Shown here piece after piece: positions 4,782 through 48,573 of a DNA stretch of 64,000 nt (within the stretch, counting starts at the first letter, position 1; the number at the start of each line of letters is the position of its first letter). The DNA is from Guillardia theta CCMP2712 (lineage: Eukaryota; Protista; Cryptophyta): positions 128,020 to 192,019 of the forward strand of contig NW_005434560.1 of NCBI RefSeq assembly GCF_000315625.1. The letters run 5' to 3'. Made by a program: the position numbers and the translations under genes. The notes beneath the pieces were generated by a model that did no database searches, was not told the DNA's origin, and saw only the letters and a program-made list of their open reading frames with translations.

Positions 4782-5279
4782 ATGCTCGCCTTCGACATCG
4801 AGACCATGGGCCTCAGCATGCACCACCACGAAATCACTGTCGCCGCCGTCTACGACCCAACCAAGGGCATCCGCCACTGCTACAACTTCTACAGGCACCG
4901 CCACGACCGCACCAGGTGGCAGCGCGAGGTGGACGATTTCCTACGCACCCTCGACGAGGCCCGCACCCTCTGCACCTTCAACGGCATCCGTTTCGACATC
5001 CCCTTCATCCAGACACAGTTCAAGGTCGACCCGGAGAGGGTGGGCCGCTGGGTGCTCAAGACCGTCGACCTCTTCCACCGCTGGAAGCTCCTCCGCGACC
5101 ACACCTTCTCCCTCGACAAGCTCCTCATCGCCAACGGCCTCCCCGTCAAGACGTCCAAGGGCTGCTTCGCCATCGATATGGCCAGGCAGCAGCGCTGGGA
5201 CGAGCTCGAGGACTACTGCATGAACGACACCGTCCTCACCCACCTCGTCTCGTCCAAGGAGAGGCTCGTCATACCCTGA
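4782..5279 (+). CDS. DEDD/RNase H-fold 3'-5' exonuclease
   Basis: ExoI AFDIET, ExoII TFNGIRFDIP, ExoIII DYCMND motifs. Confidence 0.85.
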   Translation: MLAFDIETMGLSMHHHEITVAAVYDPTKGIRHCYNFYRHRHDRTRWQREVDDFLRTLDEARTLCTFNGIRFDIPFIQTQFKVDPERVGRWVLKTVDLFHRWKLLRDHTFSLDKLLIANGLPVKTSKGCFAIDMARQQRWDELEDYCMNDTVLTHLVSSKERLVIP

Positions 5280-26480: not shown

Positions 26481-27068
26481 CTACTCCTCCGAGACGCTCT
26501 CCATGAGCCATGCGACCTCTGTCTTGGTTCTTTCGGCGTAGGAGAGGAAATGGTCATCCTTGTCGATGTTGTACTTGCGGATGTAGTGGAAGTACTTGTC
26601 GGAATCTCGGTCATAGTAGCCGTCGGCCACGAAAACGACCCCGTGATTGATGAACAGGGGTGCGTGCTCGTAGTGGGTCTGGCGAACATAATAGGGGTAC
26701 CAATGCACCGCCTTGACCGCCATGCTGTGGAAACACTCGATCACGTCTTCAGTGGGGACGGTGATCCTGTCCACGGCCTTTGCCTTCTCGAGCGCGCCTT
26801 CGAGCTGCTTGATGGCAGAGGCGATAGTGTCCTTCTTCTCTTTGGAGGTCGTGGTGGTGAGTTTTTCCTTCAACTCGGCGAGCTTCGGGGGTGCGAAGGT
26901 CTCGAACCTCTCGTTGCAGATGGTGACGGTGCGGATAGTGACAGTATCCAATTCTTCATCCCTGACTTTGAAGGATAGCGTCACCTTGGCCGGGTGGGCT
27001 TCAAACCTCGGGCGTTTGCGTGCGCGCTCTTCAGCGTTGCTTTGCAACCTGTAGATCTCGGTGAACAT
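26481..27068 (-). CDS. Hypothetical nuclear protein (RKRPR NLS-like)
   Basis: TATTTAAA at ~27100-27107 upstream of MFTEIY. Confidence 0.65.
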   Translation of the reverse strand: MFTEIYRLQSNAEERARKRPRFEAHPAKVTLSFKVRDEELDTVTIRTVTICNERFETFAPPKLAELKEKLTTTTSKEKKDTIASAIKQLEGALEKAKAVDRITVPTEDVIECFHSMAVKAVHWYPYYVRQTHYEHAPLFINHGVVFVADGYYDRDSDKYFHYIRKYNIDKDDHFLSYAERTKTEVAWLMESVSEE

Positions 27069-27243
27069 GCCACGCGTGCCCTGTGCTTTTTGGTGTAGCT
27101 TTAAATAAAACATCGAGGGGGGAATAAAAAAACACAAAAAAAAACTTCCATGACGCCGAAATCCATCTCTCCGCGCTTTCGAACGTATTAAACCCGGCGA
27201 TGGCGCCGCCCTCCTCGGACTGGTTACTGACGCTTTCCCGCAG

Positions 27244-27801
27244 ATTGGGACGACCAAGGGCACCGGCGGGGATGTGCTGATCCTGGAGGAGGCGGCATAC
27301 TGCGACGAAGGTTTCTTCTACGAAACCGTCGCACCCATCCTTTCCATCGGCAACACGTCGCTGCTGTGTATATCTACCTTGACATCGGAGATCAATTTCT
27401 ACACCAGGCTGATAAAGATGCGGGACCCGGAGACGGGCAGGCCACTCTTCGCCGTCAGGTGCATCGAGCTCGCCTGCCAGGCATGCAAGGAAGACGGCAA
27501 GGCGCACGAGTGTGTGCACCTCCTGCATCTCGTCCCGCAGTGGCAGAGTGGCGAGAGGCACAGGAGGCTGAAGGTGATGATGCAGGATCGCCCGGATCTG
27601 ATACAATCCGAGCTGGCGGGGCTGGCGTTCGACTCCCTGCAGCAGGCCTTCCGCCCCAAAGACGTGGAGATCATGTTCGAGCAGGTCGCCCCTCCCCTCT
27701 CCAACGGACAGACCGTCTTCGTCGTCGTGGACCCGGCGGCGGGAGGGCCGCAGAGCGACTACGCCGTCGTGAGCATCGTGAGGAGCAAGGGGCTTGTGAC
27801 G
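27244..27801 (+). CDS. Terminase large subunit exon (Walker B, coupling motif, start of nuclease domain)
   Basis: IGTTKGTGGDVLILEEAAY (Walker B), CISTL, VVVDPAAGG. Preceded by branch point ACTGAC (27226-31) and CAG acceptor (27241-43); ends at GTAACT donor, phase 0. Confidence 0.85.
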
Positions 27802-28247
27802 GTAACTCTCTGTGTGTTTGCACCCTTCTTCCCCTCTAGCTGTATTGGTAGACCTCCCGCAGCTCCCGCTCGAAGTCGACGCTGAGGCGGAGCTCGTCGC
27901 GGAGGAAGCGGGGCACGACGCGGGAGCCGAGCTCGCGGAAGAGCACGGGGGCCTTGTGGGGGCAGAGGCCCTTGAGCGTGACCCCGGTGGGTTCGTGGAG
28001 GAAGGAGCGGCAGACCGCCTCTTTTAGCCCCATGTCCACGTTGAGCAAGAGGAAGAAGACGCACCTCGCGCTGTGCGGCGACCGCCTCGCGATCTCGTAG
28101 AGCCGGACCGCCTCCGTGTCCCGCAGCTCCGCGGCGATCCTCTCCACCGCCCCCTTGCAGAACTCGAGCGTGGTCCTCATGTCGTCTGTGTAGAGGATGT
28201 GGAAGAGGACGTCCCTGTTTCTGAGCTCTGACATCTACCCTTCGCAG
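27802..28247 (+). other. Spliceosomal intron (446 nt) of terminase containing an antisense gene
   Basis: GTAACT...CTGAC(28228-32)...TTCGCAG; removal keeps the frame. Confidence 0.8.
27836..28234 (-). CDS. Intron-nested antisense gene (132 aa), unknown function
   Basis: Fills the intron almost exactly; strong GC3 codon bias. Confidence 0.65.
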   Translation of the reverse strand: MSELRNRDVLFHILYTDDMRTTLEFCKGAVERIAAELRDTEAVRLYEIARRSPHSARCVFFLLLNVDMGLKEAVCRSFLHEPTGVTLKGLCPHKAPVLFRELGSRVVPRFLRDELRLSVDFERELREVYQYS

Positions 28248-28281
28248 ATCGTCGGGATGGACGTGCTGTCGGGATGCAAAG
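28248..28281 (+). CDS. Terminase micro-exon (IVGMDVLSGCK+G)
   Basis: 34 nt between CAG acceptor and GTACTT donor. Confidence 0.75.
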
Positions 28282-28327
28282 GTACTTCTTTTTTTTTTAA
28301 TCTTTCCTGCATTGACTCCCTTGGAAG
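28282..28327 (+). other. 46-nt spliceosomal intron of terminase
   Basis: GTACTT, T-run, TTGAC branch, AAG; phase 1 removal restores the frame (G|AG = Glu). Confidence 0.8.
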
Positions 28328-28812
28328 AGCCCGACAAGCAGTTCGACCTGCTCGGGGAGCACATGGAGAGGCTGCGGGGGATGAACACCGCGCTCTACGC
28401 CTCGGAGTTCGTCGTCATGGTGGAGCGGAACCTGGGCTTCGAGGCGGAGTACCACCAGCGGCACTTCAACGGCATGCCCCATGTCCGCTTCCGCGTCGAC
28501 CACAAGGCCCAGAGGTACGGCGTGCTGACGACACTCGAGATAAAGCACGCCATGTGCACCATGCTCAACACCATGCTGCGGGAGCGGAGGGTGCACCTCT
28601 GGGGCGAGTTCGTCAGCCGCGACCCCAGGGGCATGAAGCGCCGGCTCCGCGAGCAGCTCGAGATCTACTCCTACCAGTTCAAGGGCGCCGCCAGCGTCTT
28701 CAACAAGGACCAGCTCGCGCTCAGCGGGAAGGTCGGCGGGATGAAGGACGACGTCTGCATCGCCCTGCAGCTCGCCTGCTACTACAGCTCCAACCCGGAG
28801 TTCTACGTGTAG
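28328..28812 (+). CDS. Terminase last exon (RNase H-like nuclease domain)
   Basis: VMVERNLG and SGKVGGMKDDVCIAL motifs typical of herpes/phage terminase nucleases. Confidence 0.85.
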
Positions 28813-31896: not shown

Positions 31897-33384
31897 ATGG
31901 GACGCACCAAACAAGATCAACGGAGGGAGACCGGTCAAAGGGCTCCAGTCGCGAGGCTCTCAACTCAGAGAGCCAGAGAAGATGCACCCTTTACGGCGGG
32001 TGTAAGACAGCCAGGCAGCACTGCTACCAAGCAGCGCGGTGTTGTCGCATCGGGCGTGAATGTGCCCAATTATCTGCAGTTGATCTGTGCCCTTTCTGCT
32101 TTTCAAAGTGAGGAAGATCTAAAACAAATGCAGTACTTTGTCGACCTTTCTAAGGAAGATGAAGCTTGGTACAACAAGCTTACCTCAGAAAACAGGCAAA
32201 TATTTGATGATCTCTGGGTTAGGCTCGATTCCGTGTCTGTACCTCAGACAGAACAGCAAACGACTGAAGGTGCAGCTTCTATCTTGCAGAGCATGCGCAA
32301 TGACGAGAATCAAGACACGCAACAGGAGTTCCAGGAATCCGATCCAACCAATGTCGTGAGCGGCACCCTGCAACCGGACGTCACGGTGCTCCTCGAATCC
32401 CAACCCGAGAGCAATGAAATGGATTCGCAGCAAGAGCCTGTGCCGGCCCCTCCTGCCGTCGATGGAAATGGTGATCCAATCGATGAAACGGGCACTGGAT
32501 CGCAGGTTCCTGGGACGTCGCCGACCGATGAGCCGACATCCGTTTCCTCTACCATCGATGAGAACAATCAAGAAATCGATGGAACGGGTACTGAATCGCA
32601 GGTTCCTGGGACGTCGCCGACCGTTGAGCCGACATCCGTTCCTGTCGTCGATATGAACGAGAACAGAGATGAAGGCTCTTCCAACGCTACCGGTTCAAGC
32701 AAACTGCTAGAGAAGGCATTTCAGCGAGAGAGCAGCTCGGATGAATCCGATGATCCCGATGCACCTGTGATCACCAACTCTCGCAAGAACGTCGGTGGCA
32801 AGCAACTCCCACAGATGCAACCACAGATGTCGAACCCACAGCCGCAACCAGCAACGTTTGTGAACCCAGCTTTGGAAGAGTATCACTTCGTTATTCCCGA
32901 GCAACCCGACAATGGTCCGGAACAAACAGGCGTTCCATCTACTGCCACTGATTCGTCTGTTTCTAAAAAACCAATCAGAACCAAGCAGACTGCCAAGAAG
33001 AGCACTGGCGGCAAAGCACCACGCAAAGGTCGCGCCAAAAAGGATTCTAGGAGGTCCACCGTACACGACGGCGGAGTCAAAAAGCCCCACCGCTTCCGCC
33101 CCGGCACCGTGGCCCTCCGCGAGATCCGCAGGTACCAGAAGAGTACGGAGCTCCTTATCAGGAAGATCCCTTTCCAGCGGCTCGTCAGGGAGGTAACGCA
33201 AGACCTGGGATTCCGGGGCATCCGATATAAAGCAGATGCCATCATGGCGTTGCAGGAGGCTTCGGAGGCCTACCTGGTTGGACTCTTTGAAGACACCAAC
33301 CTCTGTGCCATCCATGCCAAGCGTGTCACGATCATGCCCAAGGACATCCAGCTGGCCCGGAGGATCCGTGGGGAGCGTACTTAG
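31897..33384 (+). CDS. H3: Histone H3 with a long extension and a second, N-terminal H3-like tail (495 aa)
   Basis: C-terminal [17 protein letters not shown]...[28 protein letters not shown]...[11 protein letters not shown]; N-terminal MGRTKQ... collinear with the H3 tail; TATTTAAA at 31853. Confidence 0.95.
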
Positions 33385-39772: not shown

Positions 39773-41998
39773 ATGCAATCCACGCTGCCAACCCCCCCGC
39801 CCCCCCAGGCCGCACCGTTCCCAACCCCCTTATCGCCCCAAGCCGCACTTGCAGCGCGCCGCGTCCTATGCTTCCTCCGCGGACCCGCCTACTCCCGCTC
39901 CATCCGCTCTCTCTCCTCCCGCATCAAGCGCTACGGCGTGCTCGAGCGCTGGGAGCCATCTGCGGACTTCAAGGTCATGACGAAGAAATCGCAGCGCAAG
40001 TGGCTCATCCGCGACATCCGGAGGTTTGTCACAACGGCGATCTACATGATCACGCGCAACGTCAATCGGAGCGGGACCGCCATCGCCGAGGAGGAGAATG
40101 CGCCGGCCTTCAACGTCCGCATCCTCCTCGCCTCGCTCCTCATTGTCAACCGCCCGAATAGCTGCTTCGAGGCCATCGGCGAGCTCGAGAGGAGGGTGCA
40201 AGCTTCGTCCTCTCCCATCTACGATTCCCTGTGCGCCTTGGTTGACTGTGCCCAGGGCCAGACTCTGAACTCCATGAATTGGACGGAGCACCGCGACTTC
40301 CTCCGCCGCCTGAAGACCTACCTTCAAGACTTCCAAGCGTGGAAGGTTCCCGACGAGCACAAGCTTTCCGAGCGCATCAAGCACGCCCTTCTCGCCCTGT
40401 ACCGCGCGGAGTCACACCTCACTGAGGAGAGCCAGGGCTACGAGAGCATGAAGCAGGAGTTTCGGGCGCAGAAGGCCAAGCTCAGGGCCAAGATGGTGCA
40501 GATCGCGGGGACCCAAGGCCTTGCGAACGTGGACGAGCTGCTGAGGAAGGAGCGGATCTACCCCGAGGACGACGAGGAGGCTGGCGCGAGTGAGGAGGCC
40601 GGTGCGAGTGATCCGTCCGCCGCCAGCAGCCTCCCCCCCTCGACCAACGCGTCCGGTCTGTCGTCTCTCCCGGGTAGGATGACAAACGAGCAGCTGGCAC
40701 ACGAGCTCCTACTCGATCCGAACTTCAAGCTCGACACAGAGGGAGCCGGCTACATCGACAACGCAGTCCTCTCTAACGTGCGGGAGAGCTTCAAGATCGC
40801 CTTCTGGAACAGCCTGGTCGACGACCTAAGGATCTCACCCCCCTGCTACACACGTGTGATCAGAGTGCTGGGTGAGGTGAGGGACGGGCTCATAGATCTG
40901 GCACCAAGGTTCAGAGCTTATCTGCGGGAGAAGATCGACACCAACCACATCACGCAACTGGTCGAAATGGGATCGATTGACTGGCCATCCTGCATCGCCA
41001 TACTCGACGGTGTCATCTCCTCCGCGATCGAGATCCAGGAGCCGAAGCGCAAGGAGGAGACGGTGTCGGAGTGGGCGGAGAGGAAGGCGAAGATGCAGTC
41101 CTGCGAGCCGGAGGAGCAGCCGGAGGCCTTCTGCGCCAACCTCGAGTACACACTGGCGCGCGTCAATGCCATGCGGGTCGATGCGGCCAACGCGCGCCTC
41201 CGGAACATCGCCCACGTCATCCAGAATCACGGCGTCGAGTATGAGCAAAGTCACATGTCGAAGAAGATCAGGCAGAACCCGGAGTACCTTCGGCGCACAC
41301 CCGAATGGATCCTTCAGTCGATCACCAAGCTCTCCAAGGAGAATGGCATGATCATCCCCTCGCTCCTCCGCGGCGACGGCGCGACGTTCCAGACGGTCCA
41401 CGCAGCGGCAATCCTCGGCCTCGTCACCGCGGATGTGCCCATCACGGATGAAAACTGCCCGGAGTTGCTCCTCCTCGACGTCGCCCGCCTGAAGAGGCTG
41501 CAGAGGTCTTTCCGATTCGACCTCTTCGGCTGCGGCTGCCTGCGGATGGCCTCCCAGAAGATTCTCTCCAAGGACAGGGGCACGTCCGCCATGGGACTCA
41601 TCCGGCATCTCGTCACGGCTCTCAATGCGTTCGACGCCTCCGAGATGGACACTGAAGGTGCAAAGAAGGTGTTCAAGGACTCGTTCAAGTCAGAGCTCTC
41701 CGACGAGGAGAAGGGGATCATCACCGCTACCTTCTACCCCTACAGCGAAGTGGCGCTCGGCCAACTCCTCGAAGTTCCCGCCCCCACCACCGCTGCCCTC
41801 TTCCCGTTCGTCGAGGAGCACTGGTACAACGTCGCCGTGAAGGTCTCCGAGAGTCGACCTGCCTATCTCAACACCTGGTCCCTGAATGAGCGCATCACCC
41901 GCAACGCCAAGGCCCTGCGCAAGATCATCGATGTGAACCGCAAGGTCCACACCGCGCTCTACAACAGGATCATCGCGGAGCAGGCGGCTAGGGTTTAG
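39773..41998 (+). CDS. T-complex protein 11 (TCP11/SOK1) family protein
   Basis: NEQLAHELLLDPNF, AFW, MRVDAAN, GVEYE, PELLLLD motifs. Confidence 0.85.
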   Translation: MQSTLPTPPPPQAAPFPTPLSPQAALAARRVLCFLRGPAYSRSIRSLSSRIKRYGVLERWEPSADFKVMTKKSQRKWLIRDIRRFVTTAIYMITRNVNRSGTAIAEEENAPAFNVRILLASLLIVNRPNSCFEAIGELERRVQASSSPIYDSLCALVDCAQGQTLNSMNWTEHRDFLRRLKTYLQDFQAWKVPDEHKLSERIKHALLALYRAESHLTEESQGYESMKQEFRAQKAKLRAKMVQIAGTQGLANVDELLRKERIYPEDDEEAGASEEAGASDPSAASSLPPSTNASGLSSLPGRMTNEQLAHELLLDPNFKLDTEGAGYIDNAVLSNVRESFKIAFWNSLVDDLRISPPCYTRVIRVLGEVRDGLIDLAPRFRAYLREKIDTNHITQLVEMGSIDWPSCIAILDGVISSAIEIQEPKRKEETVSEWAERKAKMQSCEPEEQPEAFCANLEYTLARVNAMRVDAANARLRNIAHVIQNHGVEYEQSHMSKKIRQNPEYLRRTPEWILQSITKLSKENGMIIPSLLRGDGATFQTVHAAAILGLVTADVPITDENCPELLLLDVARLKRLQRSFRFDLFGCGCLRMASQKILSKDRGTSAMGLIRHLVTALNAFDASEMDTEGAKKVFKDSFKSELSDEEKGIITATFYPYSEVALGQLLEVPAPTTAALFPFVEEHWYNVAVKVSESRPAYLNTWSLNERITRNAKALRKIIDVNRKVHTALYNRIIAEQAARV

Positions 41999-43690: not shown

Positions 43691-44326
43691 TCACTCGATG
43701 TACCGCTTCACCACCGGCCACAGCCTCCTCCACCCGATCTCGATGTCCTCGACGCACTTACCCCCCGTGATGACGACCTTGCCGCTCTCGAAGCAGAGGA
43801 GGACGACGGGGGAGTTGTCCGGGCGGAAGATGAGGCCCGGGAAGAGGGACTTCTGGAAGGTGCACTTGGAGCACTGCTCGTTGTACATTCTTTCCAGATT
43901 CAAGGTGCGATTTCCCTGGAGGTCGATGATGGCGTTGCCGACGATGTTCTGGACGACGATGTCCTCGACGTGGAAGTCCACCCCGATGATGTAGGCGCGG
44001 AGCATCTCGACGATCTTGAGCGAGGCGTGCAGGCACTTGTACCAGCTCTGGGAGCCGGTCAGGACCAGCTTCCCGGAGCTGAAGAGCAGCACCGTGCAGG
44101 TGGGGTTGTCGATGCGGATCGTGATGGCGGCGAACTTGTGCTTGTCGTAGAAGCTGTTGGGCAGCACGGAGGCGATGTAGTTCAGGTTGAGCGGCACCAC
44201 GCTCGACCGGATCTTGGTCGTGCTGACGATGTTGTGGATGAAGGCCGGGGGCGCGTCGCTCTCACCCTCGCCCGGGAGGAAGGAGAGCTCGTCGATGGAG
44301 AGGGCGGAGTAGAGGCGCTTCTTCAT
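43691..44326 (-). CDS. TBP: TATA-binding protein
   Basis: Two TBP repeats: NIVST...LLFSSGKLVLTG and QNIVG...FPGLIFR...LLCFESGKVVITG. Confidence 0.95.
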   Translation of the reverse strand: MKKRLYSALSIDELSFLPGEGESDAPPAFIHNIVSTTKIRSSVVPLNLNYIASVLPNSFYDKHKFAAITIRIDNPTCTVLLFSSGKLVLTGSQSWYKCLHASLKIVEMLRAYIIGVDFHVEDIVVQNIVGNAIIDLQGNRTLNLERMYNEQCSKCTFQKSLFPGLIFRPDNSPVVLLCFESGKVVITGGKCVEDIEIGWRRLWPVVKRYIE

Positions 44327-47687: not shown

Positions 47688-48398
47688 TCACTTCCATCCT
47701 ATGGGCTGGATCTCGGGCGACTCCACGTTCCTGTAGTCGTTGTTCACGGCGGTGAGCCCGTAGACTCCGAGCAGCGCGGAGTTGCCCACCACCACGGTGG
47801 GGAGGACGGCCTTGCGGTAGTACTCGCTGTCTATCTCCAGGTTCCCGATGACGGTGTCGAGGGGGTGGACCTTGAAGACGTCGAGGGTGGTGTAGGACCC
47901 GTACGGGGCGCAGAAGTGGACGTGCAGCTGGAAGACGCTGGGGAGGTAGTGGAAGTAGGCCATGATGTTGTGCCGCTTCCACTCGGTGTTGGCGAGGATG
48001 TACTCGGTGCACTGCACCCTCAGGCGGCGGAGCATCGGCAGGTGGCAGCCCCGCAGGTCGCGGAGGGTCTTCAGGCCCCGGTCCTTGACCACGGCCAGCC
48101 AGTTGATGGTCTTCCCGTCGTTGAGCGCGTGGGTGTCGGGTAGGAAGACGAACTCGGGGGTGTCGAGGAGGACGTTGTCCGTCTCCCGCTCGCCCCGGAT
48201 CACCTCGTACACCCACTGCTTCCGCGGCATGTTCACCTGGTTGTCAATGAAGGACTGCATCTCCTCGCTGAAGGCGTGGGAGGGCTTGCAGGTCACCACG
48301 CAGCGCTCGTAGCTGCCGCTCCCGCGCTCCTTGGGTTTGAAGGGACAGTCGGGTGTATCCACCTCGTCTTTGATCCTCATAAATTGCTCTGCCTCCAT
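47688..48398 (-). CDS. DcpS: Scavenger mRNA decapping enzyme (m7GpppX diphosphatase, HIT family)
   Basis: WVYEVI, FVFLPD, TLRDL, FHYLPSVFQLHVHF. Confidence 0.9.
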   Translation of the reverse strand: MEAEQFMRIKDEVDTPDCPFKPKERGSGSYERCVVTCKPSHAFSEEMQSFIDNQVNMPRKQWVYEVIRGERETDNVLLDTPEFVFLPDTHALNDGKTINWLAVVKDRGLKTLRDLRGCHLPMLRRLRVQCTEYILANTEWKRHNIMAYFHYLPSVFQLHVHFCAPYGSYTTLDVFKVHPLDTVIGNLEIDSEYYRKAVLPTVVVGNSALLGVYGLTAVNNDYRNVESPEIQPIGWK

Positions 48399-48573
48399 GT
48401 CAATCCAACCCCAAACTCGATCGAATGCTCCAAGGACGGTTAAATAAAGGGAGGGAGGCAGACTCTTCGTTTCGGAGCACGCGGAAAACACAGCTTGATT
48501 TATACATAGGTGAGAGGATTCCATATTGTTGTATTAAAGCATGGGTATACTATGGAATAATCAAACACTATCC

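Follow-up and report, generated by a model that had tools for sequence, protein, structure and literature searches.

A mirusvirus-like terminase back half with its own promoter-like element, probably trans-spliced to a front half encoded elsewhere

Mirusviruses are herpes-related viruses of single-celled eukaryotes. Trans-spliced terminases have been described in Mirusviricota (Okeanovirales, Styxvirales and others, e.g. Mirus_G_0318) by Medvedeva et al. (Nat Microbiol 2025, PMC12768974), who report that most mirusvirus terminases outside two orders are trans-spliced and whose genome table contains 'trans-splic' 656 times. According to the same paper, the terminase junctions were confirmed in metatranscriptomes, the two halves lie on opposite strands in other mirusviruses, and the split-site positions vary, with exact matches only with alloherpesvirus clades. 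It also describes MING-1 (Mirusvirus Intron Gene 1), represented by 271 genes at one intron site, the published rows being 129-224 aa long. The other related system is the herpesvirus UL15 gene, whose introns of around 3.5 kb hold genes (PMC13595911, PMC3079670); a separate UL15.5 transcript has been reported in an alphaherpesvirus (PMC3079670).

Regarding the stretch of DNA analysed here (64 kb, hereafter the window), we found the Walker B and nuclease half of a terminase and no Walker A half, with an acceptor in the window and a donor, in the same phase, in relatives only. The likeness to the published mirusvirus terminases (PMC12768974) consists of a split just before Walker B, canonical splice sites, far-apart halves, further cis introns and, in the nuclease region, an intron with a nested antisense gene. 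However, the published mirusviruses have junctions confirmed by RNA, whereas the arrangement of the window is predicted from DNA: run X21 yielded 7 scattered reads, none of them with a joint, run X10 probably consists of a relative's DNA, and no RNA with real coverage was found. The main text of PMC12768974 holds neither the TATA element nor the AAAGTC repeats nor the short cis-order cases that are described below. We consider it probable that a TATA promoter of its own drives the back half and that the host spliceosome joins the resulting RNA in trans to a front-half RNA whose gene lies outside the window; the window would then be one clean, intron-poor example of the published phenomenon.

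The back half begins with exon A (27244..27801, + strand, 186 codons, phase 0), which encodes Walker B, a Cys/His cluster and the start of the nuclease. A direct read of the letters places IGTTKGTGGDVLILEEAAY, the terminase frame from 27244, directly 3' of the AG at 27242-43, and ACTGAC is found at 27226-31 as branch site. The frame is open from 27154 and, according to the ORF reading, its first in-frame ATG comes only at 27418, in agreement with the original prediction of an orphan acceptor without ATG. The local ATGs at 27150 and 27200 had been called unusable and they are, given that no phase-0 GT is reachable from either; the ATG-led phase-0 GTs in the 400 nt upstream are located at 26848-27076 and give peptides that are not terminase-like. 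Directly upstream there is a divergent ORF of 210 aa (26481..27113, - strand), unrelated to the terminase, with no Pfam family and no front-half signal. There is no sign of an assembly break around 27240, since runs X1 and X2, either of which may be the source of the window, each have one unbroken contig across the site with zero substitutions. Two runs labelled as single organisms have the same DNA, which could make the system experimentally reachable.

Exon A had no match in the Pfam search, and PHROGs gave a weak terminase match (E 6e-5) for an intronless relative. Relatives of the exon reach up to 82% identity, and the profile search returned full-length relatives of around 500-720 aa. A profile built from 22 intact homologues matched the herpes terminase chains (E 4e-19) and T4 gp17 (1e-8). 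Exon A starts where the full-length homologues read YPx/xxTxxG (here and below a slash marks the boundary), just before Walker B.

The original prediction let the terminase end at 27801, which turned out to be too early: the gene continues on the + strand over two cis introns to 28812. The first one is a gene-bearing GT-AG intron (27802..28247, 446 nt, phase 0; GTGACG/GTAACT ... TTCGCAG/ATC), followed by a mini-exon of 34 nt (28248..28281), which has a homologous mini-exon in locus L043. The second intron is short (28282..28327, 46 nt, phase 1; AAAG/GTACTT ... GGAAG/AGCCC) and occupies the same position in L033, L035 and L043. The last exon (28328..28812) encodes the rest of the nuclease domain and ends with the stop codon TAG at 28812. 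The three joined exons add up to 1077 nt and 358 aa with a single terminal stop, and the product shares 61% identity with the intronless P0010 (over 353 aa) and 32% with residues 196-557 of the full-length relative P0071. The GT of the gene-bearing intron is found at the same codon in 65/65 loci tested; in L043, which is without the intron, this GT is exonic, and the intron is absent exactly when L043 is compared with L033 and L035. At window positions 28434-28559, X1 and X2 each have a second contig that is around 89% identical and of similar depth. This second related terminase copy suggests a second related virus in these samples.

The first intron contains an antisense gene (27836..28234, - strand, 132 aa), which was matched (E 9e-09) by a profile made from the nested genes of 19 relatives. 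An antisense ORF was picked at the gene-bearing intron in 55 of 65 loci, and 34 of the 36 unique picks match one profile together with the ORF of the window. The gene shares with the MING-1 introns (PMC12768974) the nuclease-region intron, the opposite strand and a helical model without a match among solved structures, and its 132 aa fit the published size range. We regard it as MING-1-like on the basis of position, size and family conservation. AlphaFold models the protein as mostly helical (pLDDT 93). The copy of the window has no Pfam family, no match among the PDB sequences (best E 0.18) and none at E<=0.001 with Foldseek against PDB and BFVD; the best VIA Z was 4.8 and all the atlas matches were below 0.9. 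We also considered a relation to the small herpes terminase subunit, for which structure and sequence searches gave no support; this does not imply a new fold.

The relatives that were compared are the best 80 of 272 confirmed metagenome stretches. The exon start [IV]xTTKGT is kept in 75 of these 80 loci, with AG directly before it in 75/75 (71 CAG, 3 TAG and 1 AAG), so the acceptor is more than a chance match. Among 42 non-redundant loci, CTRAC peaks at -20..-29 of the acceptor (20 occurrences), and stops upstream of the acceptor are common in the relatives. On the donor side, 120 front-half proteins are listed of the 1079 found. An end motif is present in 115 of the 120 listed, and in 114 of these 115 the next residue is V, as expected from a GT donor. 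Where the donors could be read in DNA they are AAG/GT in 8/8, and the front halves end in SYPSK/GT, in phase 0. Thus the phase-0 GT donor that had been looked for does exist on the front halves of relatives, but it is not this virus's own, whose front half was not located.

Front halves are present in 9 of the best 80 loci. In eight of them the front half is upstream on the same strand, 1232-3511 nt from the acceptor and with genes in the gap, and ordinary cis-splicing could join these halves. In the ninth, L073 (17370-17741), the front half comes after the acceptor, 10.8 kb downstream and on the same strand; the locus ends within it, and its donor is not seen. With this reversed order, linear cis-splicing cannot join the halves. 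Upstream sequence of 9 kb or more is available for 16 loci, and in 11 of these it contains no front half. The loci with closely linked halves form one shallow clade with weak support (83/84) in a tree of 42 rows, and the window falls outside it; rows with introns or stops in exon A, including L073, were left out of this tree. In L032:320-1042 the Walker A motif reads TPRWFGKT, against TPRRFGKT in the other six aligned front halves, which is either a variant or a sequencing error.

The locus L043:1-700 is cDNA-like: its exons are 99.8% identical to those of L033 and L035, the gene-bearing intron is gone and the short intron is kept. Before the acceptor it has 35 different nt with an in-frame stop, and not the SYPSK exon. 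L043 could be a cDNA, partly spliced and with a 5' exon that is non-cognate, or else a DNA variant; unless it is the latter, the acceptor may take other partners. One leader was compared with the 5' piece, the cryptomonad one of 17 nt given in PMC5619915, and it did not match.

The absence of a Walker A exon from the 64 kb, as originally predicted, held on both strands with profiles and controls. In the six frames of the window there was none with a profile from 29 full-length homologues (best E 1.8), none with one from 115 close front halves (best E 1.8), and none among the matches listed with one from 9 close front halves (best E 3), while the matching C-half profile gave 5.7e-63 and 1.4e-29. 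The sensitivity control was run at E<0.01 with a held-out set of 72 of the 115 sequences, each less than 65% identical to the planted protein, and it recovered 7 of 10 planted pieces of 20 aa, 7/14 of 15 aa and 5/7 of 30 aa; a front half could therefore escape notice in the window only if all its exons were very short. Otherwise the front half sits over 27.2 kb away on the upstream side, over 35.2 kb away on the downstream side, or on a different contig. Several candidates were discarded as chance matches, namely words of the window that resemble Walker A, a YPSK word within a different gene on the minus strand (26873-26980), and the one-mismatch matches to the donor pattern (5 in the window against 2.5 expected). 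The X1 and X2 reads gave nothing against the front half of the relative L022 at 80% likeness, a search that is uninformative because the expected identity is only around 72%. A viral contig collection held no relatives of either terminase half.

Upstream of exon A we found a TATA-like element, GTATTAAA (27185..27192, + strand), which starts 59 nt before the exon and is likely the promoter of the back-half transcript. In the window, 25 of 62 RTATWWA sites are placed 20-90 nt before a same-strand ORF of at least 100 aa, against a mean of 4.4 and a maximum of 13 in random placements, and three control motifs gave 4/47, 5/35 and 6/32 in the same test. Among 37 non-redundant relatives, 21 have a TATA-like site at -85..-50 relative to the acceptor (shuffles: mean 5.4, maximum 13), and the counts in the three neighbouring bins are 4, 6 and 10. 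The enrichment at gene starts of the window and at the acceptors of relatives thus speaks for the local promoter that had been proposed. Judged by these sequence patterns, the upstream TATA motif behaves as the promoter of this genome, a reading that we did not meet in the part of the literature covered. The distances from RTATWWA to ATG are mostly 31-45 nt in the window. Because of these distances in other genes, the 5' end of the leader would be at around 27210-27215, and the ATG at 27200, just 15 nt past the motif, is probably before the transcript start site. The predicted leader is thus an ATG-less outron (27210..27243, + strand) with the branch site and the acceptor described above.

Regarding the herpesviruses, the original prediction placed the split at essentially the same point as in UL15. 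The mirusvirus junction aligns to SSHN/TNGIRG of the herpes chain in the profile alignment, i.e. two codons before GIRG, which the original prediction gives as the start of exon 2 in HSV-1 UL15. With this boundary, the two split points are near but not identical. For duck enteritis virus, the printed acceptor-side letters fit the GIRG boundary and the donor-side letters are out of frame (PMC3079670). With an offset of two codons, an ancestral intron shared with the orthoherpesviruses would need intron sliding and is no more than a possibility. The terminase genes of orthoherpesviruses (UL15) and alloherpesviruses are alike in the homologous protein (E 4e-19) and in the ATPase/nuclease split just before Walker B, and the gene-filled UL15 intron is like the gap of 1.2-3.5 kb in the 8 relatives. 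However, UL15 is cis-spliced over around 3.5 kb, whereas the window has no exon 1 within the 27.2 kb upstream; an exon 1 of the UL15 type, a few kb upstream on the same strand, was found in the 8 relatives and not in the window.

In the proposed mechanism, the back-half transcript would start at around 27210-27215 with a leader of around 30 nt that contains the branch site, the front-half RNA would end in SYPSK/GT, and its donor would attack the AG at 27243. The product would read SYPSK-IGTTKG, giving a terminase of around 590 aa (about 234 aa as in L022 plus 358). We favour trans-splicing because of the AG in 75/75 relatives, their K/GT donors, the absent front half, the local TATA and the order of L073, as well as the metatranscriptome junctions and the opposite-strand halves of other mirusviruses (PMC12768974). 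The joining at the RNA level that had been predicted, an idea already published, is supported; for this virus, trans-splicing is its probable form and a cis intron longer than 27 kb a less probable one. The latter would be an expanded UL15 intron: the front half would lie on the same strand, over 27 kb further upstream, and one precursor would span the genes between the halves. It would agree with the 8 relatives that have the same order at 1.2-3.5 kb with nested genes and with the gene-holding UL15 introns of around 3.5 kb (PMC13595911, PMC3079670), and short-read junctions look alike for cis and trans. Nevertheless, the precursor must cross many same-strand genes together with the 3' ends presumed for them, and a promoter-like TATA precedes the exon by 59 nt; furthermore, the order is reversed in L073 and opposite strands are in print (PMC12768974), so we regard this long intron as unlikely.

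The promoter-like element and the frame that is open from 27154 would also suit two separate proteins, the back half being translated unspliced from a near-cognate codon or from Met 27418, in the manner of the separate UL15.5 transcript of an alphaherpesvirus (PMC3079670). This is very improbable, given that the conserved branch site, the AG and the K/GT of the front half make sense for splicing only, that a start at Met 27418 loses Walker B and that upstream stops are common in relatives. An assembly artefact, or a decayed remnant whose front half was lost, is the least probable explanation and hardly credible to us: the front half of this virus was indeed not found in the 64 kb, but the contigs of two runs, either of which may be the source, span the site unbroken, the spliced frame is intact and the abrupt start recurs in 75 of the 80 loci (best 80 of 272).

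If trans-splicing joins the halves, the way in which the two RNAs meet may be approached through the relatives. The complementarity between donor and acceptor sides that had been suggested is not above chance in the 8 relatives with both ends: one of the 8 pairs reached an uncorrected p<=0.05 relative to dinucleotide shuffles, and the stability of mismatched donor-acceptor pairs is often no lower. On the other hand, at least two copies of AAAGTC are found within 90 nt past the front-half donor in 8 of 9 loci (the eight cis-order loci and L081), as tandem repeats 12-71 nt after the donor (L022:6642-6730, L036:6490-6580, L081:9385-9440 and five other loci). After the donor of the gene-bearing cis intron, AAAGTC occurs at all in only 2/36 loci, and the other parts of the repeat-bearing loci rarely contain it. 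When two close pairs are counted once each, the comparison becomes 6/7 against 2/36 (Fisher p 3e-5), although the genomes are not independent. The read-through tails of the front-half proteins carry this signal as well: KS or KV is present in 45/62 unique tails, at 4.7 per 100 aa, whereas control tails have it in 5/56, at 0.19 per 100 aa. We did not find an earlier report of AAAGTC repeats behind donors in the part of the literature covered.

A single AAAGTC is also found before the acceptor in 11 of 39 non-redundant loci, and in 10 of them (L015, L022, L026, L027, L034, L036, L044, L048, L055 and L056) it comes 19-20 nt after the TATA-like site, a spacing kept even with the front half a few kb upstream. 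This spaced pattern, which was defined after the fact, has 14 matches in 45 loci, 11 of them at the acceptor, two of which are identical. AAAGTC is absent before the acceptor of the window and from L032, and a pair of these words in the window (35011/35018) is due to chance. The word might bind a protein, act as an initiator-like element or signal termination; a protein that bridges the RNAs at repeats of AAAGUC is a lead that comes from relatives only. A more specific version, which we hold to be doubtful, is that these viruses might have a trans-splicing code of their own, consisting of a TATA-driven outron of 30-60 nt and AAAGUC words, in tandem behind the donor and, in one clade, also once at 19-20 nt past the TATA. 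A protein, possibly MING-1, would bind these words and bring the RNAs together without base pairing. If this code were true, the family would preserve the steps from a herpes-like cis intron to full trans-splicing, because the promoter is kept even in the cis order at 1.2-3.5 kb. Concrete targets for the question of how the RNAs pair are the promoter signal, the repeats behind the donor and the different gene orders of the relatives, on evidence that comes mostly from relatives.

The source of the window is likely a mirusvirus, a label that rests on the terminase and its gene structure. Genes for the major capsid protein, portal and triplex were not identified in the window by Pfam among its 93 ORFs, a search made without mirusvirus profiles, and two capsid candidates, a 525-aa ORF searched in the atlas and a 926-aa ORF folded as single sequence (pLDDT 33), were not informative. 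The only Pfam families above the cut-off among the 93 ORFs are histone, Tcp11, DcpS_C, RNase_H_2 and TBP. The histone domain (E 1e-42) is at the C-terminus of a 495-aa ORF (31897-33384, +), behind an extension of 360 aa. The TBP gene is at 43691-44326 (-), the Tcp11-family gene at 39773-41998 (+), the scavenger decapping-like DcpS_C gene at 47688-48524 (-) and the RNase H-like exonuclease at 4782-5279 (+). Finally, the assembly of Baffinella frigidus contains a partial homologue, P0056 (61% over 37% of the exon), which is a hint that cryptophytes host relatives of this virus.
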